From Escherichia coli (GTDB taxonomy: Bacteria; Pseudomonadota; Gammaproteobacteria; Enterobacterales; Enterobacteriaceae), in the NCBI RefSeq assembly GCF_013122565.1, contig NZ_CP053258.1: 64,000 nt of DNA, one strand, 5' to 3'. Below are positions 16,612-32,554 of this stretch, in pieces. The first letter of the stretch is position 1. Each line of letters opens with the position of its first letter. The notes below the pieces were generated by a model. That model ran no database searches, was not told where the DNA came from, and worked only from the letters and a program-made list of their open reading frames with translations. The position numbers were made by a program, and so were the translations under genes.

Positions 16612-16750
16612 ACGCATTTTTTCATACTCTAAATAATTCGAGTTGCAGGAAGGCGACAAGAGAGTGAATCCCCAGGAGCTTACATAAGTAAGTGACCGGG
16701 GTGAGCGAACGCAGACGCAGCACATGCAACTTGAAGTATGACGAGTATAA
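16612..16750. repeat. ERIC/IRU element
   Basis: contains gagtgaatccccaggagcttacataagtaagtgaccggggtgagcg; inverted copy at 31477-31609. Confidence 0.8.
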
Positions 16751-19772: not shown

Positions 19773-20513
19773 GTGAAGTTCAAAGTTATCGCCCTGGCGG
19801 CATTAATGGGTATTAGCGGGATGGCAGCGCAGGCTAACGAATTGCCGGATGGACCGCATATTGTCACCTCCGGTACGGCAAGCGTGGATGCGGTGCCAGA
19901 CATTGCCACTCTTGCGATTGAAGTCAACGTGGCCGCGAAGGATGCCGCTACTGCCAAGAAACAGGCAGATGAGCGCGTCGCACAATACATTTCCTTCCTT
20001 GAACTCAATCAGATCGCGAAAAAAGATATCAGCTCAGCGAACTTACGCACCCAGCCAGATTATGATTATCAGGATGGTAAAAGTATCCTGAAAGGCTACC
20101 GTGCTGTGAGAACGGTGGAAGTCACGCTCCGTCAGTTAGACAAACTGAATTCCTTGCTGGATGGCGCGCTGAAGGCGGGTCTTAACGAAATTCGTTCTGT
20201 GTCGCTGGGCGTGGCGCAGCCGGATGCCTATAAAGATAAAGCGCGTAAGGCAGCGATTGATAACGCGATTCATCAGGCGCAGGAACTGGCGAACGGCTTT
20301 CATCGCAAACTGGGGCCGGTATATAGCGTGCGCTACCATGTTTCCAACTATCAGCCCAGCCCAATGGTGCGGATGATGAAAGCCGATGCCGCGCCGGTCT
20401 CAGCCCAGGAAACTTACGAGCAGGCCGCTATTCAGTTTGATGATCAGGTCGATGTGGTCTTCCAGTTAGAACCTGTGGATCAACAACCCGCTAAAACACC
20501 TGCCGCACAATAA
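19773..20513 (+). CDS. yggE: DUF541 periplasmic/oxidative-stress protein
   Basis: 246 aa with signal peptide; GTG start. Confidence 0.9.
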   Translation: MKFKVIALAALMGISGMAAQANELPDGPHIVTSGTASVDAVPDIATLAIEVNVAAKDAATAKKQADERVAQYISFLELNQIAKKDISSANLRTQPDYDYQDGKSILKGYRAVRTVEVTLRQLDKLNSLLDGALKAGLNEIRSVSLGVAQPDAYKDKARKAAIDNAIHQAQELANGFHRKLGPVYSVRYHVSNYQPSPMVRMMKADAAPVSAQETYEQAAIQFDDQVDVVFQLEPVDQQPAKTPAAQ

Positions 20514-24867: not shown

Positions 24868-27004
24868 GATGCTGGCTTATCAGATTCAGTACGTCGCGCA
24901 CGCTGTCGAGCATAGGTGTACCTGGACCATAAATCGCCGCCACGCCGCGCTCTTGCAGGAAGGCGTAATCCTGCGGCGGAATGACGCCACCCGCGACCAC
25001 GCAGATATCTTCGCGTCCCCATTTTTTCAGCGCTTCGACCAGTTCCGGGATCAGCGTTTTATGACCGGCAGCCAGTGAGGATGCGCCCACTACGTGAACG
25101 TCGTTTTCTACGGCCAGGCGGGCGATCTCTTCAGGTGTAGAGAACATCGGGCTTAAATCTACGTCGAAACCGAGATCGGAATAGGCGCTGGCGATCACTT
25201 TCGCGCCGCGATCGTGCCCATCCTGGCCCATTTTAGCGATCAGAATGCGCGGGCGACGACCATTGTCGGCAAGGAACTGCTCCGTTTGCGCAACAATGGC
25301 ATCGAACTCGGAGGCCGATTTCTCAGACTGATGATAGCTTTGCGCAATCACGCCGGTAACACACTGGCTTGGCACCAGATAACGGTCGAAAGCGGCTTCC
25401 AGCGCATCGGAAATTTCACCCAGGGTGGCGCGAACGCGAGCGGCATTAACAGCGGCAGCCAGCAGGTTTTCGTTATGCTGTGCGGCGTGAGTCAGGGCGT
25501 TCAACGCGGCGGTTACGGCGGCATCATCACGGGTGGCGCGAATGCGTTCCAGCGAAGCAATTTGCTCGTTACGCACCATCACGTTGTCGATCTCAAGTAC
25601 ATCGGTTTCGTCTTCGTGATCCAGTTTGTACTTGTTGACACCAACGATGACACGCTTGCCCTGGTCGATCAGCGACTGTTCGCGCGCTGAGGCCTCTTCG
25701 ATCATTCGTTTTGGCAGACCTGCTTCGATCGCTTTCGCCATGCCACCGGCTTCGTCGATCTGTTGGATAATAGCTCTGGCTTGTTTGACGATTTGATCGG
25801 TCAGCGACTCAATGTAATAGGATCCGGCCAGTGGATCGACGGTGCGGCAGAGTTCTGATTCTTCCTGGATGATGATCTGGGTGTTGCGGGCAATGCGTGC
25901 TGAGAAATCGGTAGGCAAACCAAGCGCTTCGTCAAAGGCGTTGGTATGCAGTGACTGAGTACCGCCCAGCGTCGCAGCCAGTGCTTCAATGGTGGTGCGG
26001 ATAACGTTGTTATACGGATCCTGTTCAGTCAGGCTCCAGCCTGAGGTCTGGCAGTGGGTACGCAGCGCCAGTGATTTCGGATCCTGTGCGCCAAATCCAC
26101 TGACCGCTTCGCTCCATAAATAACGTGCCGCACGCAACATGGCGACGTTCATAAACAGATCCATGCCGATGCCGAAGAAGAACGACAGGCGAGGAGCGAA
26201 GTCATCAATTTTCAGTCCGGCAGAGATTGCTGCTTTGATGTACTCAATCCCATCGGCGAGCGTAAATGCTACCTGCTGCACGCAGTTGGCACCCGCTTCA
26301 CCCATGTGGTAACCGCTGATACTGATGGTATTAAATCGCGGCATGTTGCCGGAACACCAGGCGATGATGTCGGCGATAATGCGCATTGACGGTTTTGGCG
26401 GGTAAATATAGGTGTTGCGGCAAAGATACTCTTTGAGGATATCGTTCTGAATGGTGCCGGTCAGTTTATCAGGTGTAACACCTTGCTCTTCTGCGGCGAC
26501 GATATAAAACGCCAGTACTGGTAGCACTGCGCCATTCATGGTCATCGAAACCGACATTTTATCCAGCGGGATCTGGTCGAACAGGACTTTCATATCTTCC
26601 ACGGTGTCGATAGCGACGCCCGCTTTGCCTACGTCGCCCGCCACTCGTGGGTTATCGGAGTCGTAGCCTCGGTGGGTGGCAAGGTCAAACGCAACGGAAA
26701 GACCTTTTTGCCCGGCGGCCAGGTTACGGCGATAAAAAGCGTTGGACTCTTTTGCTGTCGAGAAACCAGCATACTGACGGATGGTCCACGGTTGGGCGGT
26801 ATACATAGTGGCACGCGGGCCACGAACGTAGGGCGGCAAACCAGGAAGGGTACCTGTCACCTCCAGATTATCGAGATCGGCTTCGGTATACAGCGGCTTG
26901 ATGGCGATCCCTTCCGCGGTTTGCTGAACCAGCGAGTCGACAGTTTTCTCCCGACGGCTCAATTCCTTGTTGGCAAGCTGTTGCCACTCCTGCACGTTAG
27001 ACAT
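24860..27004 (-). CDS. scpA: methylmalonyl-CoA mutase (sleeping beauty mutase)
   Basis: 714 aa from [15 protein letters not shown]. Confidence 0.9.
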
Positions 27005-27207
27005 TATTTGCTCCGTAAAACGCAATCAAAATGAGGGTATTTGCGCCTACGGTGAGCTTTTTACGTGGGTTTGTCGCCAGCAAAAAAAATGCATTCAGAC
27101 GTCGTTTTTTGCCGCCTGAGATTTGTCTATTTTGTGATGTGATTCAAGGAATATAAAAAGAAGTGAGGATAACGCCTGATATGTGCTATCAGGCATTATT
27201 TGATGGA

Positions 27208-28101
27208 TTAATCCTGACGAAGGACTTTGTGACCATAATCGAGTAACGCATCAGTGACTTTACGCATCATGCGGCTTTCAGGAGCAAAGCGGTGCCAGTA
27301 GAGCATCCGTCGTTGAAATAGCCCAGGCGTTAAGTCAATCAGTTCGCCGCTGGCCAGCTCTTTCTCTATTTGCAGGTGCGGAATCATACAGCAGGTGGTG
27401 CCCTGGCGAGCAAGTTGCACGAACGCTTCTGAAGAATTAACGATATGGCAGGGTACGCTGCCAGGAGGCAGATCGAAGTTTTGCTGCAAAAAGGCCTGGT
27501 GCATATCGTCAAGATGGTCAAACGCGACCACTGGCGCTTTTAATAATGCCGAACGCGTTACGCCGTTAGGGAAATATTTTTCGGCAAACGGTTTTGAGCT
27601 GACGAACAGATAGTCGAGCGCACCAAGTTTATCGACAAGACAACTCGGCAGCGCCTGATGTTGAATACTCACCGCGCCGACCACTTCGCCGCGACGCAGA
27701 CGTTCCTGAGTGCGGGTTTCATCTTCTACCTGCAAGTTGAGGCGGATAGGCGAGTCAGCCAACACAGGAGCCAGTGCCGGAAGCAACCACGTCGCCAGAC
27801 TGTCGGCGTTGACCGCCAGTGAAAGCAGCAGCGGAGTCGAACCGGTTTGTTCATCACCCAGCCACTCTTCTTCCAGCAACTCCACCTGGCGCAGCAGTGC
27901 CAGCAGTTTTTGCCCTTGTTCCGTCGGGCGCGGCGGTACGGTACGCACCAACAGCGGCTGCCCGAACATATTTTCCAGTTGCTTAATGCGCTGTGAGACG
28001 GCTGATTGTGTAATGCACAGCTTTTGTGCCGCGCGCTCAAATCCTCGTTCACGTATCACCGCATCCAGTGCCTGTAATGTTCTGTAGTCCGGGCGTTTCA
28101 T
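27208..28101 (-). CDS. argP: LysR-family regulator ArgP/IciA
   Basis: 297 aa. Confidence 0.95.
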
Positions 28102-28170
28102 TGCTGTTGTCTGCTCCTGGTAAATGCTTTTTCCGCACTATGACACAATTTTGCGTTGGGTACAGAGCAT

Positions 28171-29496
28171 TTAACGCATACAAAAGCGGTCGTAATGGAA
28201 GTTTTGGCTGGCAATCCCATTTTCATATAACCCTTTGCTGAGCGCTTTGGCAAAACTCTGTGGGCCGCAAAACCAGAAATGGGTGTCACCTTTATTTGCT
28301 ATTTTATCAGCAAGATAGTGCGACTGTAGGCGCTCACCTTTATGCGCATCAAGCAGATGCAGTGTGACACTGGCCAGGGCACAAAGTGAGGTAAGTTTAT
28401 CAACATACCATGCATCCTCGCTTCGGCTGACGCAATACCAGAGATCCACAGGAACACGGGACGCGCCATGCTGGTTCAGATACTCAAGCTGGGCGATAAA
28501 GGGGGTAATGCCGATGCCTCCAGCTATCCATACCTGGCGGGAGCAAGGGAGAGTAAAATCAAACTTTCCCCATGGCCCTTCAACGATGGCGGACTGGCCG
28601 ATTTTTATCGAGGATGCAAGGGTAGAGGTATAATCCCCTAAATTTTTGATGGCAAAGCGCAACGTGTTCTTCTCTATTGCATATGAAGCGATAGTAAAAG
28701 GGTGAGATTCTTTACTGTGTGCGAACGTTAAGAATGCAAACTGACCCGGAGAATAGTCGATGGCATGTTCCAGCTCCAGTATGACTTCGGTAATTTGTCC
28801 CGGATGGTTAACAATACTTTTAATGGTGGCCTGATGCTTGTTTTTATTACCGTTTAATTTCAGCAGCGAAATGAAAGCCGCAAAGACGCCTGGGATGGTA
28901 ATTAAAATTAATAAATACGCCGCAGGAGTTTCCCACCAATATGATTTAAACAAAGCAGTAAACACATGAAAGGCAATTGCCAGATAAAAAACAGGGAACA
29001 AACGGTGAACAAGATGAAATAAATGATAGGGAACCTTTTTGCTTAGAGACACGAAAACCATCGCTATCATAATAAACATTGCACATTCACCCGCTAACAG
29101 TCCCGCATGAAGCCAATTTTCTTGTACTGGCGTCAGGTTAATATCAACGATTTTACCAGGGTGAGTAAGCCAGCAAAAGGCGACGAATAACTGGGGTAAT
29201 TTTTCATCCAGCCAGTGGGTGAAAGCAAAAGCTATGGCGCATATTCCTGCCCACTTATGTAATCGCCACGCTTTATCCAGACCGCCCAGCACTTTGTTAA
29301 ACCATGATGAACGCAGCGATAAACACATCGTCAGCGTCATCAGACACCACGCAAGGGTTCCCGTAAAAAAGAGTATGTTTTGTCGAAGGAACCATATTAG
29401 CGCGATTGGCTTTTCACGAAAAATATCACCGGACGACAAAAAAATAAGGCATGTGACAAAGCAAACCAATGTACCTGTAAGATTAGCTTTTTTCAT
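28171..29496 (-). CDS. ferric-reductase-like membrane flavocytochrome (TM domain plus FAD/NAD(P)-binding domain)
   Basis: 441 aa; N-terminal polytopic His-containing helices, C-terminal ferredoxin-reductase-like fold; AT-rich by eye. Confidence 0.6.
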   Translation of the reverse strand: MKKANLTGTLVCFVTCLIFLSSGDIFREKPIALIWFLRQNILFFTGTLAWCLMTLTMCLSLRSSWFNKVLGGLDKAWRLHKWAGICAIAFAFTHWLDEKLPQLFVAFCWLTHPGKIVDINLTPVQENWLHAGLLAGECAMFIMIAMVFVSLSKKVPYHLFHLVHRLFPVFYLAIAFHVFTALFKSYWWETPAAYLLILITIPGVFAAFISLLKLNGNKNKHQATIKSIVNHPGQITEVILELEHAIDYSPGQFAFLTFAHSKESHPFTIASYAIEKNTLRFAIKNLGDYTSTLASSIKIGQSAIVEGPWGKFDFTLPCSRQVWIAGGIGITPFIAQLEYLNQHGASRVPVDLWYCVSRSEDAWYVDKLTSLCALASVTLHLLDAHKGERLQSHYLADKIANKGDTHFWFCGPQSFAKALSKGLYENGIASQNFHYDRFCMR

Positions 29497-29557
29497 TTTT
29501 TATTTCATTTTGGCAGAGGAGCATAGAATAGTTCCATGCTCCCGTTAAACAGGGTGA

Positions 29558-29818
29558 TTATTTATAGAAAATTACAGTGGCGTGGATATAATTTTTACCG
29601 GAGAAAGAACTGATGTAGTAATTACTGGCTTGCAATTCTTCCGCTTTCTCTTTGATTTGACTTTCAACGCCCGCTGGATTGCTATTGTGTGTGGAAATAC
29701 TCACTTTTGATATCTGTTCAAGATTATTGTCCGGTTTTTGTATCTCGGTTGCTGCAAATACGTGTCCTGTGAGAGTGCAAAGAAATAACGCGGCAAATAA
29801 ATTTTGCTTAATAGACAT
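29558..29818 (-). CDS. DUF1471 (YdgH/BhsA/McbA-family) secreted small protein
   Basis: 86 aa with signal peptide MSIKQNLFAALFLCTLTGHVFA. Confidence 0.6.
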   Translation of the reverse strand: MSIKQNLFAALFLCTLTGHVFAATEIQKPDNNLEQISKVSISTHNSNPAGVESQIKEKAEELQASNYYISSFSGKNYIHATVIFYK

Positions 29819-29834
29819 AATAACTCCTTTTATA

Positions 29835-30464
29835 TTAAAGAAAATGATTAAATACTTGTGTAATAAGATCAGGGATTTGCGCTAATGCATTTTGCTCGGC
29901 GAGTTCGCGTCCCGGTTGGGTTTTGTCGACGCCTTCCGCACGTAAAATATGTGTATTGGTAATGCCCATTAATTTCAGCGTGGCTTGCAGGTAACTTTCC
30001 TGATGATCCAGCGCCAGATGTGCTTTATCGCAATAGATACCGCCGCGCGTCGAGACAATAAACGTCGGTTTATCCGTCAGTAACCCAACGGCACCAGCGG
30101 AAGTAAAACGAAACGTTAAACCAGCCTGACAGACCTGATCTATCCAGGTTTTGAGGCCAGATGAAACGCTGTGATTAATCATCGGCGCGCCAATAATGAG
30201 CACATCGCACGATGCCAGTTCTTCAATAGCGGCGTGAATCCCATTCACCTCCTGCTGAATTTGTGCGTTCTCGCACTCCGCTTTACCGCAAAGCGCCAGA
30301 AAGGTTTCTTCACGCAAATGGGGCGGCGGCGTCAGGCCGACGTCGCGATGAATAATTGTGGCTTGCGGAAAGTGTTGGCAAAGCGCTTCTACCAGCGCCT
30401 GGCTTAATTTCCGCGAACTTGAATGCTTAAGCATTGGGCTGCTGTCGATATGGAGAATTTTCAT
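29835..30464 (-). CDS. FMN-dependent NAD(P)H azoreductase/quinone reductase-like flavoprotein
   Basis: 209 aa; flavodoxin-like fold pattern MKILHIDSSP...LIIGAPM.N. Confidence 0.65.
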   Translation of the reverse strand: MKILHIDSSPMLKHSSSRKLSQALVEALCQHFPQATIIHRDVGLTPPPHLREETFLALCGKAECENAQIQQEVNGIHAAIEELASCDVLIIGAPMINHSVSSGLKTWIDQVCQAGLTFRFTSAGAVGLLTDKPTFIVSTRGGIYCDKAHLALDHQESYLQATLKLMGITNTHILRAEGVDKTQPGRELAEQNALAQIPDLITQVFNHFL

Positions 30465-30564
30465 GGGCTTGCTCTCGTTTCTGCGATGAGAGAAGTTTAA
30501 CTGTTGTTGATATGGTGATTAAATAGACATAATTGAACTTCATTGTTGTGAAAATAGAACAATC

Positions 30565-31461
30565 ATGATCGACTGGAATGATTACTACTACTTTGCCCTG
30601 ATTGCCGATGAAGGCAGCTACAGCCAGGCGGCGCTGCGTGCGGGCGTGTCGAAATCGGTATTAAGCCGACGAATGGCTGCGCTGGAGGAGCGCCTTGGCG
30701 TACGGCTTATTCAGCGAACTACGCGGCGTCTGGCCCTGACGGCGGAAGGCGAACAGTTTGCCGTCGAATGTCGGGCGCTGGTGGCGCAGGGGGAACGGGC
30801 CAGAGCGGTGGTGATGGCCGCCCAGGAAAGCCCACAGGGAATGCTGCGCGTCAGCGCACCGGTATTTATGGCTGAAACATGGTTTGGTGAGTTTGTCAGT
30901 GAGTTTATCGCCCGCTGGCCCCTGGCGAAGGTGCAACTGCTGGCAATTAATCGCCCGGTGGATATGGTCGCTGAAGGCATTGATATTGCGCTGGTTACGG
31001 CTTCCGGCGCGCTTGCGGACTCGACGCTGCATTATAAAAAATTACATACCCAGGCCGATATTTTAGTTGCCAGTTCGCAGTGGCTGGCCCGCCATCCGCA
31101 GGTGAAGGTCATTGACGATCTTAACCGCGTTGACGGGATCCTCCGCCTGACGAACAATGGCGGGAGCCAGTGGCAGTTAATTAATGGCGAACAGGAGATT
31201 ACGCTGCAACCCGAGGCTCGTTTGCAGACGAATAACATTCGCGTCATGTTGCAGGCAGTGCTTGGTGGGAATGGCGTGGCGTTATTGCCTCAATTTGCCT
31301 GTAAACAGGGGCTTGCGAACGGTGAATTGGTGCGCCTGTTTGCACCGTGGAGCGGCATACCCAGACCGTTGTATGCTTTATTTGCGGGGCGAAAGGGGAT
31401 GCCCGCCATTGCGCGATATTTTATGGATGAGTTATCTGTACGGCTTGCCAACGGGGTCTGA
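30565..31461 (+). CDS. LysR-family transcriptional regulator (divergent from the redox operon)
   Basis: 298 aa; likely intact counterpart of K-12 pseudogene yqfE (from memory). Confidence 0.7.
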   Translation: MIDWNDYYYFALIADEGSYSQAALRAGVSKSVLSRRMAALEERLGVRLIQRTTRRLALTAEGEQFAVECRALVAQGERARAVVMAAQESPQGMLRVSAPVFMAETWFGEFVSEFIARWPLAKVQLLAINRPVDMVAEGIDIALVTASGALADSTLHYKKLHTQADILVASSQWLARHPQVKVIDDLNRVDGILRLTNNGGSQWQLINGEQEITLQPEARLQTNNIRVMLQAVLGGNGVALLPQFACKQGLANGELVRLFAPWSGIPRPLYALFAGRKGMPAIARYFMDELSVRLANGV

Positions 31462-31476
31462 CTCGCTTTTTTTGTA

Positions 31477-31609
31477 TATACTCGTCATACTTCAAGTAGC
31501 ATGTGCTGCGTCTGCGTTCGCTCACCCCAGTCACTTACTTCTGTAAGCTCCTGGGGATTCACTCTCTTGTCGCCTTCCTGCAACTCGAATTATTTAGAGT
31601 ATAATGCGT
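31477..31609. repeat. ERIC/IRU element, inverted relative to 16612-16750
   Basis: reverse complement aligns nearly base-for-base with the pgk-fbaA copy. Confidence 0.8.
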
Positions 31610-31639
31610 CTGAAATTTCATACCACAGGCGAAACGATC

Positions 31640-32299
31640 ATGACGCAGGATGAATTGAAAAAAGCAGTAGGATGGGCGGCACTTCAATATGTTCAGCCCG
31701 GCACCATTGTTGGCGTAGGTACAGGTTCTACCGCCGCACACTTTATTGACGCGCTCGGCACGATGAAAGGCCAGATTGAAGGGGCGGTTTCCAGTTCGGA
31801 CGCTTCCACTGAAAAACTGAAAAGCCTCGGCATTCACGTTTTTGATCTCAATGAAGTAGACAGCCTTGGCATCTACGTCGACGGCGCAGATGAAATCAAT
31901 GGTCACATGCAGATGATCAAAGGCGGCGGCGCGGCGCTGACCCGTGAAAAAATCATTGCTTCGGTTGCAGAAAAATTTATCTGTATTGCAGACGCTTCCA
32001 AGCAGGTTGATATTCTGGGTAAATTCCCGCTGCCAGTAGAAGTTATCCCGATGGCACGTAGTGCAGTGGCGCGCCAGCTGGTGAAACTGGGCGGTCGTCC
32101 GGAATACCGTCAGGGCGTGGTGACCGATAATGGCAACGTGATCCTCGACGTCCACGGCATGGAAATCCTTGACCCGATAGCGATGGAAAACGCCATAAAT
32201 GCGATTCCTGGCGTGGTGACTGTTGGCTTGTTTGCTAACCGTGGCGCGGACGTTGCGCTGATTGGTACACCTGACGGTGTCAAAACCATTGTGAAATGA
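31640..32299 (+). CDS. rpiA: ribose-5-phosphate isomerase A
   Basis: 219 aa from [12 protein letters not shown]. Confidence 0.95.
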
Positions 32300-32554
32300 T
32301 CTGACGGGGGAACCTCCCCCGTTAAAAAAATTCTCTTCATTAAATTTGGTGACATGTGTCACGTTTTTACCTGGCTATTGTCGATTGCTCTAAATAAATC
32401 CTCTAAACCAGCATATTCATCCAAGAAATACCTTTGCGTGATATTTCCTCAACATCGCGACGCAAACGTTCATATTGCCGCAATATTATTTTTTGATATG
32501 TTGAAAGGCGGATGCAAATCCGCACACAACATTTCAAAAGACAGGATTGGGTAA

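Follow-up and report, generated by a model that had tools for sequence, protein, structure and literature searches.

A LysR-linked gene module with an NADPH oxidase-like flavocytochrome between argP and rpiA of Escherichia coli, reduced to the yqfE remnant in K-12

The interval between argP and rpiA of Escherichia coli holds four intact genes in some strains and a pseudogene in K-12, which raises the question of what these genes encode, what became of them in the species and what they are for. The locus was analyzed in a 64,000-nucleotide (nt) stretch of contig NZ_CP053258.1 (NCBI RefSeq assembly GCF_013122565.1), called here the window; coordinates count from its first letter and open reading frames (ORFs) were taken from a program-made list. 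The four genes are best read as a long-standing accessory operon shared by Escherichia and Salmonella, under purifying selection where it is present and lost in most strains, most likely serving as an inducible envelope redox or electrophile stress module, a reading to which we give a little less than an even chance. The anatomy proposed in a preliminary description of the window, a LysR-family gene divergent from a three-gene minus-strand group, matched the ORF list exactly:

27208-28101, minus strand: argP, left flank
28171-29496, minus strand: NADPH oxidase (NOX)-like gene for a membrane flavocytochrome b of 441 amino acids (aa), similar to SpNOX, with an N-terminal six-helix ferric-reductase domain and a C-terminal FAD/NAD(P)H dehydrogenase domain
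29558-29818, minus strand: gene for a small, secreted DUF1471 protein (YdgH/BhsA/McbA family), 86 aa
29835-30464, minus strand: gene for an AzoR-like reductase of 209 aa, FMN-dependent and using NAD(P)H; it opens the operon
30465-30564, no strand: divergent control region, 100 bp, between the AzoR-like and lysR genes
30565-31461, plus strand: lysR, LysR-type regulator of the AphB/CrgA-like subgroup, 298 aa
31640-32299, plus strand: rpiA, right flank

The three minus-strand genes are separated by gaps of 16 and 61 bp, and their layout is consistent with a single operon. No terminator-like site was found on either strand of positions 27900-31700, where shuffled sequences led us to expect 4.6, and neither the gap from the NOX-like gene to argP nor that from lysR to rpiA yielded an intrinsic terminator.

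The NOX-like protein, whose exact sequence is WP_171460396.1, carries every sequence and predicted fold feature required to pass electrons from cytoplasmic NAD(P)H across the inner membrane, by way of FAD and a pair of b haems, to the periplasmic side. It had been described beforehand as a ferric-reductase-like membrane protein with a C-terminal FAD/NAD(P) domain, and the Pfam domains Ferric_reduct (45-174, 6e-14), FAD_binding_8 (226-297) and NAD_binding_1 (324-420) were all present; its top PDB sequence match was the Streptococcus pneumoniae NADPH oxidase SpNOX (8qq7, 1e-25). The AlphaFold2 model, computed from an alignment of 114 sequences (predicted local distance difference test 92.5, predicted template modeling score 0.90), contained six helices at 2-20, 33-59, 73-106, 123-151, 157-184 and 191-211, and Foldseek placed full-length SpNOX first (E = 3e-26, TM-score 0.77/0.84), followed by human NOX5, DUOX1, and NOX2. 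Bacterial NOX are recognized by two His-X12/14-His motifs at least 20 residues apart in transmembrane helices 3 and 5 (TM3 and TM5), and mapping of the haem-ligand histidines onto the predicted helices gave two such pairs, H80-x13-H94 in helix 73-106 (TM3) and H164-x12-H177 in helix 157-184 (TM5). All four histidines were invariant in alignments of 18 and of 114 homologs, as were P266 in HPFT, G327 and P332 in GGIGITPF, and C410/G411 in FCGP, the FAD motif HPFTI lying at 265-269 and the NAD(P)H motif GIGITP at 327-332. The protein passed all the sequence filters by which Hajjar et al. defined bacterial NOX (PMC5676040).

The two other products of the minus-strand genes belong to known families as divergent members. 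Flavodoxin_2 (PF02525) covered residues 1-192 of the AzoR-like protein (4e-41), with full-length PDB matches to Pseudomonas putida AzoR (4c0w, 1e-30) and E. coli AzoR (1v4b, 2e-22). The NCBIfam azoreductase cut-offs were not reached (best 75.5 bits against 188, NF010075), so that the enzyme is a divergent member of the family and not, by these scores, an AzoR equivalog. AzoR homologs are quinone reductases (PMC4051601). The 86-aa protein aligned over its full length with the NCBIfam models for BhsA (2e-14), YhcN (6e-10), and YbiJ (1e-7), and also with RclB (1e-6); it missed the curated cut-offs of all models (53.7 against 90 for BhsA, 28.9 against 100 for RclB) and qualified as an ortholog of no named DUF1471 member (BhsA, RclB, YhcN). 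Its E. coli orthologs are labeled DUF1471 by PGAP, and PF07338 is precomputed on the Salmonella ortholog, which is 93% identical. By eye the signal peptide ends at VFA|A, and the protein contains no cysteine. DUF1471 proteins are periplasmic stress proteins.

The LysR protein has the features of a LysR-type transcriptional regulator, namely, an N-terminal helix-turn-helix, a LysR substrate domain, a target transcribed divergently from it and, in the intergenic region that the two share, an interrupted dyad. Full-length NCBIfam matches were obtained to PRK14997 (1e-48), YafC (6e-45), and AaeR (1e-35), and the top PDB matches were 3szp/3t1b (5e-34), which we take to be Vibrio cholerae AphB, and 3hhg (3e-28), presumably Neisseria meningitidis CrgA. 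The dyad, ATTGTT-N10-AACAAT at 30542-30563, lies flush against the lysR start codon and represents a conserved putative LysR operator. The consensus TnGTy-N10-rACnA was found next to the lysR start in six LysR-NOX pairs, with the form TCGTy-N10-rACGA at the same position in the more distant of them (L096, L097, and L014). No Fur box above chance was detected in the control region, the best match of 12/19 being equaled in 26% of shuffles; the best Fur-box-like match of the whole window (15/19, 20058-20076) is distant from the module.

Cysteines of the regulator were also compared. Mapping of the AphB redox cysteine onto the module LysR was tried and rejected: Cys245 aligns with no AphB cysteine, and no cysteine of the module LysR aligns at the position of AphB Cys235. 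Cys69 in the linker helix, also aligned with a cysteine in 3t1b, is invariant in all six NOX-linked LysRs and is the only cysteine that is; it could serve as a lead for thiol-based sensing.

The same four genes were found at the same rpiA/argP locus in some Salmonella enterica serovars, and a paralogous cassette elsewhere, beside an integrase-like fragment, in other serovars. Gene order and orientation are identical in ortholog and paralog. The paralog proteins share 69% (LysR), 72% (AzoR-like), 37% (DUF1471), and 51% (NOX-like) amino acid identity with those of the window, and the control region is conserved far more than these proteins, with about 80% identity over its first 80 columns, the lysR-proximal part. 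By these comparisons the four genes have been kept together with their control region. The paralog probably lies in a separate island; its neighbors include the integrase-type Arm-DNA-binding fragment and genes for a GerE-type regulator, DUF3156, an amino-acid permease, a cupin, and DAO.

The guanine-plus-cytosine (GC) contrast noticed by eye in the preliminary description was real by per-gene values (NOX-like.444, DUF1471.368, AzoR-like.489, LysR.567; argP, rpiA, and serA.52-.55), except that the AzoR-like gene is intermediate and not GC-rich. The mosaic origin drawn from it could not be upheld: the paralog, at about 30% nt divergence, shows the same gradient (.505/.497/.341/.405), which is thus an old trait of a co-evolving cassette and not a mark of recent assembly. 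The gradient may stem from an ancient chimeric origin.

Pairwise ratios of nonsynonymous to synonymous divergence (dN/dS) of 0.07-0.42 for the four genes indicate purifying selection where the module is present. Synonymous divergence (dS) from the Salmonella ortholog was 0.18-0.37 for the module genes and 1.24 for argP, and it follows that the module has moved between the genera since their split. Windowed identity to Salmonella rose from about 80-88% in the flanks to 89-99% at approximately 28100-31750 and faded within the flanks, as homologous recombination predicts. Recombination through the conserved flanks is the likely route of transfer, favored because neither integrase nor insertion sequence (IS) is present: no integrase or transposase ORF was found in 27000-32400 and ERIC is not a shared boundary, so that the module was not classed as a mobile genomic island, which an integrase or IS and tRNA or att-type borders would mark. 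Within E. coli, dS was similar for the module (0.05-0.14) and argP (0.04-0.13); in this species the module is an old resident that has undergone repeated loss.

The NOX-like gene was present in 247 of 5,426 complete E. coli genomes (about 4.5%), 228 of them with at least 80% of the gene. A 58-bp scrap of the AzoR-like gene was all that remained in about 3,650 genomes, and the rest had nothing from the deleted interval. Integrity was assessed in 60 rows spread over the 247 carriers: 44 had indel-free 1326-bp copies, 4 were shorter by 1-2 bp (frameshifts, as in VCSW7), 8 had an IS1, and 4 were without the 5' half. All four genes were intact in 4/4 inspected full-length copies. The idea that most E. 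coli copies are truncated, raised by 371-373-aa cluster representatives with many short members, was rejected because of these counts and because each of the intact 441-aa alleles occurs on at least 1,000 contigs; the short members are mostly contig-end fragments.

In MG1655 the interval between rpiA and argP contains only the pseudogene yqfE (b2915), as the preliminary description had stated. Alignment to the window involves two further features:

28102-28170, no strand: spacer of 69 bp from the stop codon of the NOX-like gene to the start codon of argP, with the K-12 breakpoint at 28156/28157
29865-29922, no strand: 3' remnant of the AzoR-like gene kept in K-12-type genomes, 58 bp, 91% identical to MG1655 3059574-3059631

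From the argP side, K-12 homology runs to 28156, 55 bp upstream of the argP ATG, and is followed by a 65-bp filler (3059632-3059696), of unexplained origin and without similarity to the module, which separates the argP upstream region from the AzoR scrap. The scrap is joined directly to 212 bp corresponding to window positions 31269-31480, with the LysR C terminus (96% nt identity), and then the rpiA promoter region begins. The remnants keep the order of the module, and the pattern requires at least two deletions, 28157-29864 and 29923-31268. The last 193 coding nt of lysR persist as yqfE, and the annotated yqfE ORF, within the MG1655 region 3059381-3059696, is a chimera: the AzoR scrap, read on its antisense strand, supplies the start codon and the first 38 nt, and the remainder is the LysR C terminus. 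The suggestion that K-12 is the deleted state was thus borne out by sequence comparison: yqfE is related to the module LysR gene and is a remnant of the deletion, a C-terminal LysR piece fused to an AzoR-like scrap.

The module had been placed 70 bp from the argP start codon with the argP promoter on its boundary; the spacer is actually 69 bp, and the boundary position held. With the left breakpoint only 55 bp upstream of the argP ATG, strains with and without the module have different argP promoter DNA, and the -35 region of any argP promoter is predicted to lie in different DNA in module-plus and K-12-type strains. The spacer folds weakly (z = -1.8) and has no U tract. With no terminator ahead of argP, induced transcription may read through into this gene.

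One genome per species was scanned for the full cassette, and the best 80 loci had NOX-like proteins of 34-43% identity. No AzoR or DUF1471 neighbor was found at any of them, and as far as these best 80 loci show the full cassette appears restricted to an Escherichia/Salmonella clade. Relatives with 41-43% identity, from metagenomes and an Azonexus metagenome-assembled genome, have a divergent orthologous LysR (37-40% identical, Cys69 invariant), and in one such locus an AzoR-like gene separates LysR from NOX, with a resistance-nodulation-division (RND) efflux pump coming next. In 22-32 of the best 80 loci, from beta- and gammaproteobacteria, the NOX-like gene follows DUF1924 (PF09086, 5e-36), dihaem cytochrome c (PF09626, 9e-41), and PepSY-like genes on the same strand (e.g., L036 3450-4432 and L060 4300-4995). 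These loci look like an NAD(P)H-driven periplasmic cytochrome chain, and their context suggests periplasmic protein acceptors in the wider NOX family. A divergent two-component system was also seen there. E. coli itself has a second NOX-like gene (435 aa, 38% identical) on plasmid-type DNA, between ParM/StbA partition genes and a Tn3-family transposase, without AzoR, DUF1471 or LysR neighbors.

What the module is for has to be read from these parts. In the stress-module reading, LysR would respond to a signal that is redox-active or electrophilic, for instance an oxidant or a quinone-like compound, and turn the operon on. In the cytoplasm the AzoR-like enzyme would reduce quinones or electrophiles by two electrons, the flavocytochrome would send reducing equivalents into the periplasm, to an acceptor that may be a protein or a small molecule and need not be O2 or iron, and the DUF1471 protein would act as a periplasmic accessory or partner. 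Induction of the operon might also be felt in argP by way of the read-through. This function was inferred from the quinone reductases among AzoR homologs, the stress proteins of the DUF1471 family, the layout of rclABC, the RND link, the cytochrome-linked relatives, and the acceptor data for SpNOX. In SpNOX the outer haem is exposed, cytochrome c is reduced directly, and ferric reduction is very slow; it has no canonical O2-reduction center, and its authors leave open a non-O2 or protein acceptor (PMC11564096). Recurrence of LysR-NOX pairs with the same dyad in distant lineages, with or without AzoR, was counted in favor as well, as were the upkeep of the cassette in two Salmonella versions, the well-conserved control region and the low dN/dS of the four genes.

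Several observations weigh against the stress-module reading. About 95% of complete E. coli genomes do without the module and about a quarter of carriers are IS1-disrupted, frameshifted or 5'-deleted, so the module is dispensable in most niches. One-electron transfer from haem to quinones would yield semiquinones and would not detoxify. The DUF1471 protein, lacking any cofactor motif as well as cysteine, cannot itself be the redox acceptor. The analogy with rclABC is architectural only, DUF1471 being the sole homologous component, and in a scan for the sigma-70 consensus sites were no more frequent than in shuffles and no transcription start could be placed.

Among the other explanations, a true NADPH oxidase fares best, although we consider it unlikely. 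Such an enzyme would deliver electrons to O2 and form periplasmic or extracellular superoxide for signaling or competition, with the AzoR-like and DUF1471 proteins protecting the producer. Every NOX motif is present in the 441-aa protein, and SpNOX, the closest solved relative, makes superoxide in vitro (PMC5676040), yet the SpNOX authors, finding no canonical O2-reduction center, doubt O2 as its physiological acceptor (PMC11564096). By eye, the window protein has no histidine at +4 from the outer TM3 haem ligand (HWLDEK). We know of no use for deliberate periplasmic superoxide production in an enteric bacterium.

Less likely still is a self-contained electron export to an acceptor that is neither O2 nor iron, in which the NOX-like and DUF1471 proteins would act on a periplasmic target, an oxidized envelope protein or a redox-active xenobiotic, with LysR as the sensor. 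If true, this would be the first physiological function for bacterial NOX homologs and for a DUF1471 protein, and it would suggest that RclB and RclC work analogously.

An assimilatory ferric reductase, which would reduce periplasmic Fe(III) chelates for uptake, appears improbable. The Ferric_reduct domain, the database names "iron reductase" and "ferric reductase" and the eukaryotic FRE enzymes of the same architecture (PMC3591440) speak for it; the regulator is however LysR and not Fur, the control region is without an above-chance Fur box, iron-uptake genes adjoin none of the cassette versions, and SpNOX shows very slow ferric reductase activity (PMC11564096). Equally improbable is a decaying or functionally uncoupled cluster, whose genes would be neighbors by history and heading for loss as in K-12, since the rarity and the damaged carriers that favor it are met by the low dN/dS of all four genes, the intact full-length copies and widespread intact alleles, and the gene order and operator kept in a paralog with a 51%-identical NOX-like protein.

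Comparison with known systems places the stress-module reading among several partial precedents. The protein resembles SpNOX (8qq7, 8qt6) in the six-TM ferric-reductase domain, the bis-histidyl pairs in TM3/TM5, HPFT, GIGITP, and the C-terminal dehydrogenase domain; it differs in being only about 22% identical, in exceeding SpNOX by 41 residues and having a more extended periplasmic segment between TM3 and TM4, and in belonging to a LysR-controlled operon with AzoR-like and DUF1471 genes, a context not described for SpNOX. An E. coli protein, EcNOX (UniProt L2VL28, strain KTE10), was listed and cloned in 2017 by Hajjar et al.; its haem signal was weaker than those of SpNOX and PaNOX, and it was not taken further (PMC5676040). 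It is probably the product of this gene.

The rclR/rclABC system of E. coli, which defends against reactive chlorine and hypothiocyanite, shares with the module a divergent regulator followed, in the same order, by a flavin reductase of the cytoplasm, a DUF1471 protein of the periplasm, and a protein of the inner membrane, and neither DUF1471 protein contains a cysteine. RclB and RclC seem to act together (PMC12096828). Only the DUF1471 component is homologous, and weakly (29 bits against the RclB cut-off of 100, 1e-6), whereas RclA is a flavoprotein of the disulfide reductase family and not AzoR, RclC is a DUF417 protein and not a haem flavocytochrome, and RclR is not LysR-type. A homologous set of RclA, RclB, RclC, and RclR is thus not encoded by the module, and the likeness lies in the layout.

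In MsrPQ (YedYZ), MsrQ is likewise a b-haem membrane protein with a ferric-reductase domain, and it feeds electrons to a periplasmic partner that repairs oxidized envelope proteins, a precedent for a protein acceptor (PMC5676040, PMC11564096). Unlike the NOX-like protein, MsrQ has no fused FAD/NAD(P)H domain, and its partner is a molybdoenzyme, for which there is no gene here. As regards regulation, the first operon gene belongs to the FMN quinone/azo reductase family and the best solved relatives of the LysR are 3szp/3t1b and 3hhg. AzoR-type quinone reductases are presumably under LysR control in the CrgA-mdaB pair of N. meningitidis, and we take AphB of V. cholerae to be a redox- and pH-sensing relative. 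In the module, by contrast, the reductase is joined by a flavocytochrome that spans the membrane and by a protein of the periplasm, and AphB Cys235 has no counterpart.

All four proteins belong to known families and bear generic RefSeq names, and the bacterial NOX family has been published; in our literature search, no description was found of the four-gene cassette, the paralog, the operator, the relation to yqfE or the exchange between genera. What bacterial NOX homologs do in the cell, and to which acceptor they naturally pass electrons, is still open according to the authors of the SpNOX structure (PMC11564096), and DUF1471 proteins are mechanistically unexplained. The cassette sets a NOX homolog of E. 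coli and Salmonella beside a DUF1471 protein and a quinone-reductase-type enzyme, with a dedicated LysR and a conserved putative operator. K-12 provides a natural null background, so that a reporter screen for inducers and complementation are directly feasible, and the cassette becomes a genetically tractable entry to the physiology of bacterial NOX and DUF1471 proteins. The comparison also accounts for how the pseudogene yqfE arose in K-12 and reveals that argP promoter DNA differs with module presence.

On the rpiA side, one more element adjoins lysR:

31481-31604, minus strand: ERIC insertion separating lysR from the rpiA -10 region; a lineage-specific element that does not belong to the module

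It was identified by an exact match to the ERIC2 primer and a match with one mismatch to ERIC1R. A long hairpin is predicted for it (z = -3.1), and its sole Rfam hit was a sub-threshold V_AS5 match over its whole length. It had been taken as the end of the module, which does not agree with its distribution: ERIC was found in the window strain and, as an ERIC-core match, in VCSW7, and was absent from four other module-bearing E. coli, K-12, and Salmonella, and the K-12 deletion ends inside lysR and not at ERIC. In VCSW7 there is about 150 bp of extra DNA relative to the window between lysR and rpiA, with the ERIC-core match only. In the window, the element sits inside the rpiA promoter region (31470-31610), where the target sequence TA/TATA seems to have been duplicated. 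At this site K-12 has GTATATAATGCG and the window has GTATATA[ERIC]TATAATGCG, from which it appears that the TATAAT box was rebuilt at the ERIC end. A second ERIC copy, matched by both primers and opposite in orientation to the one at 31481-31604, was found at 16664-16707.

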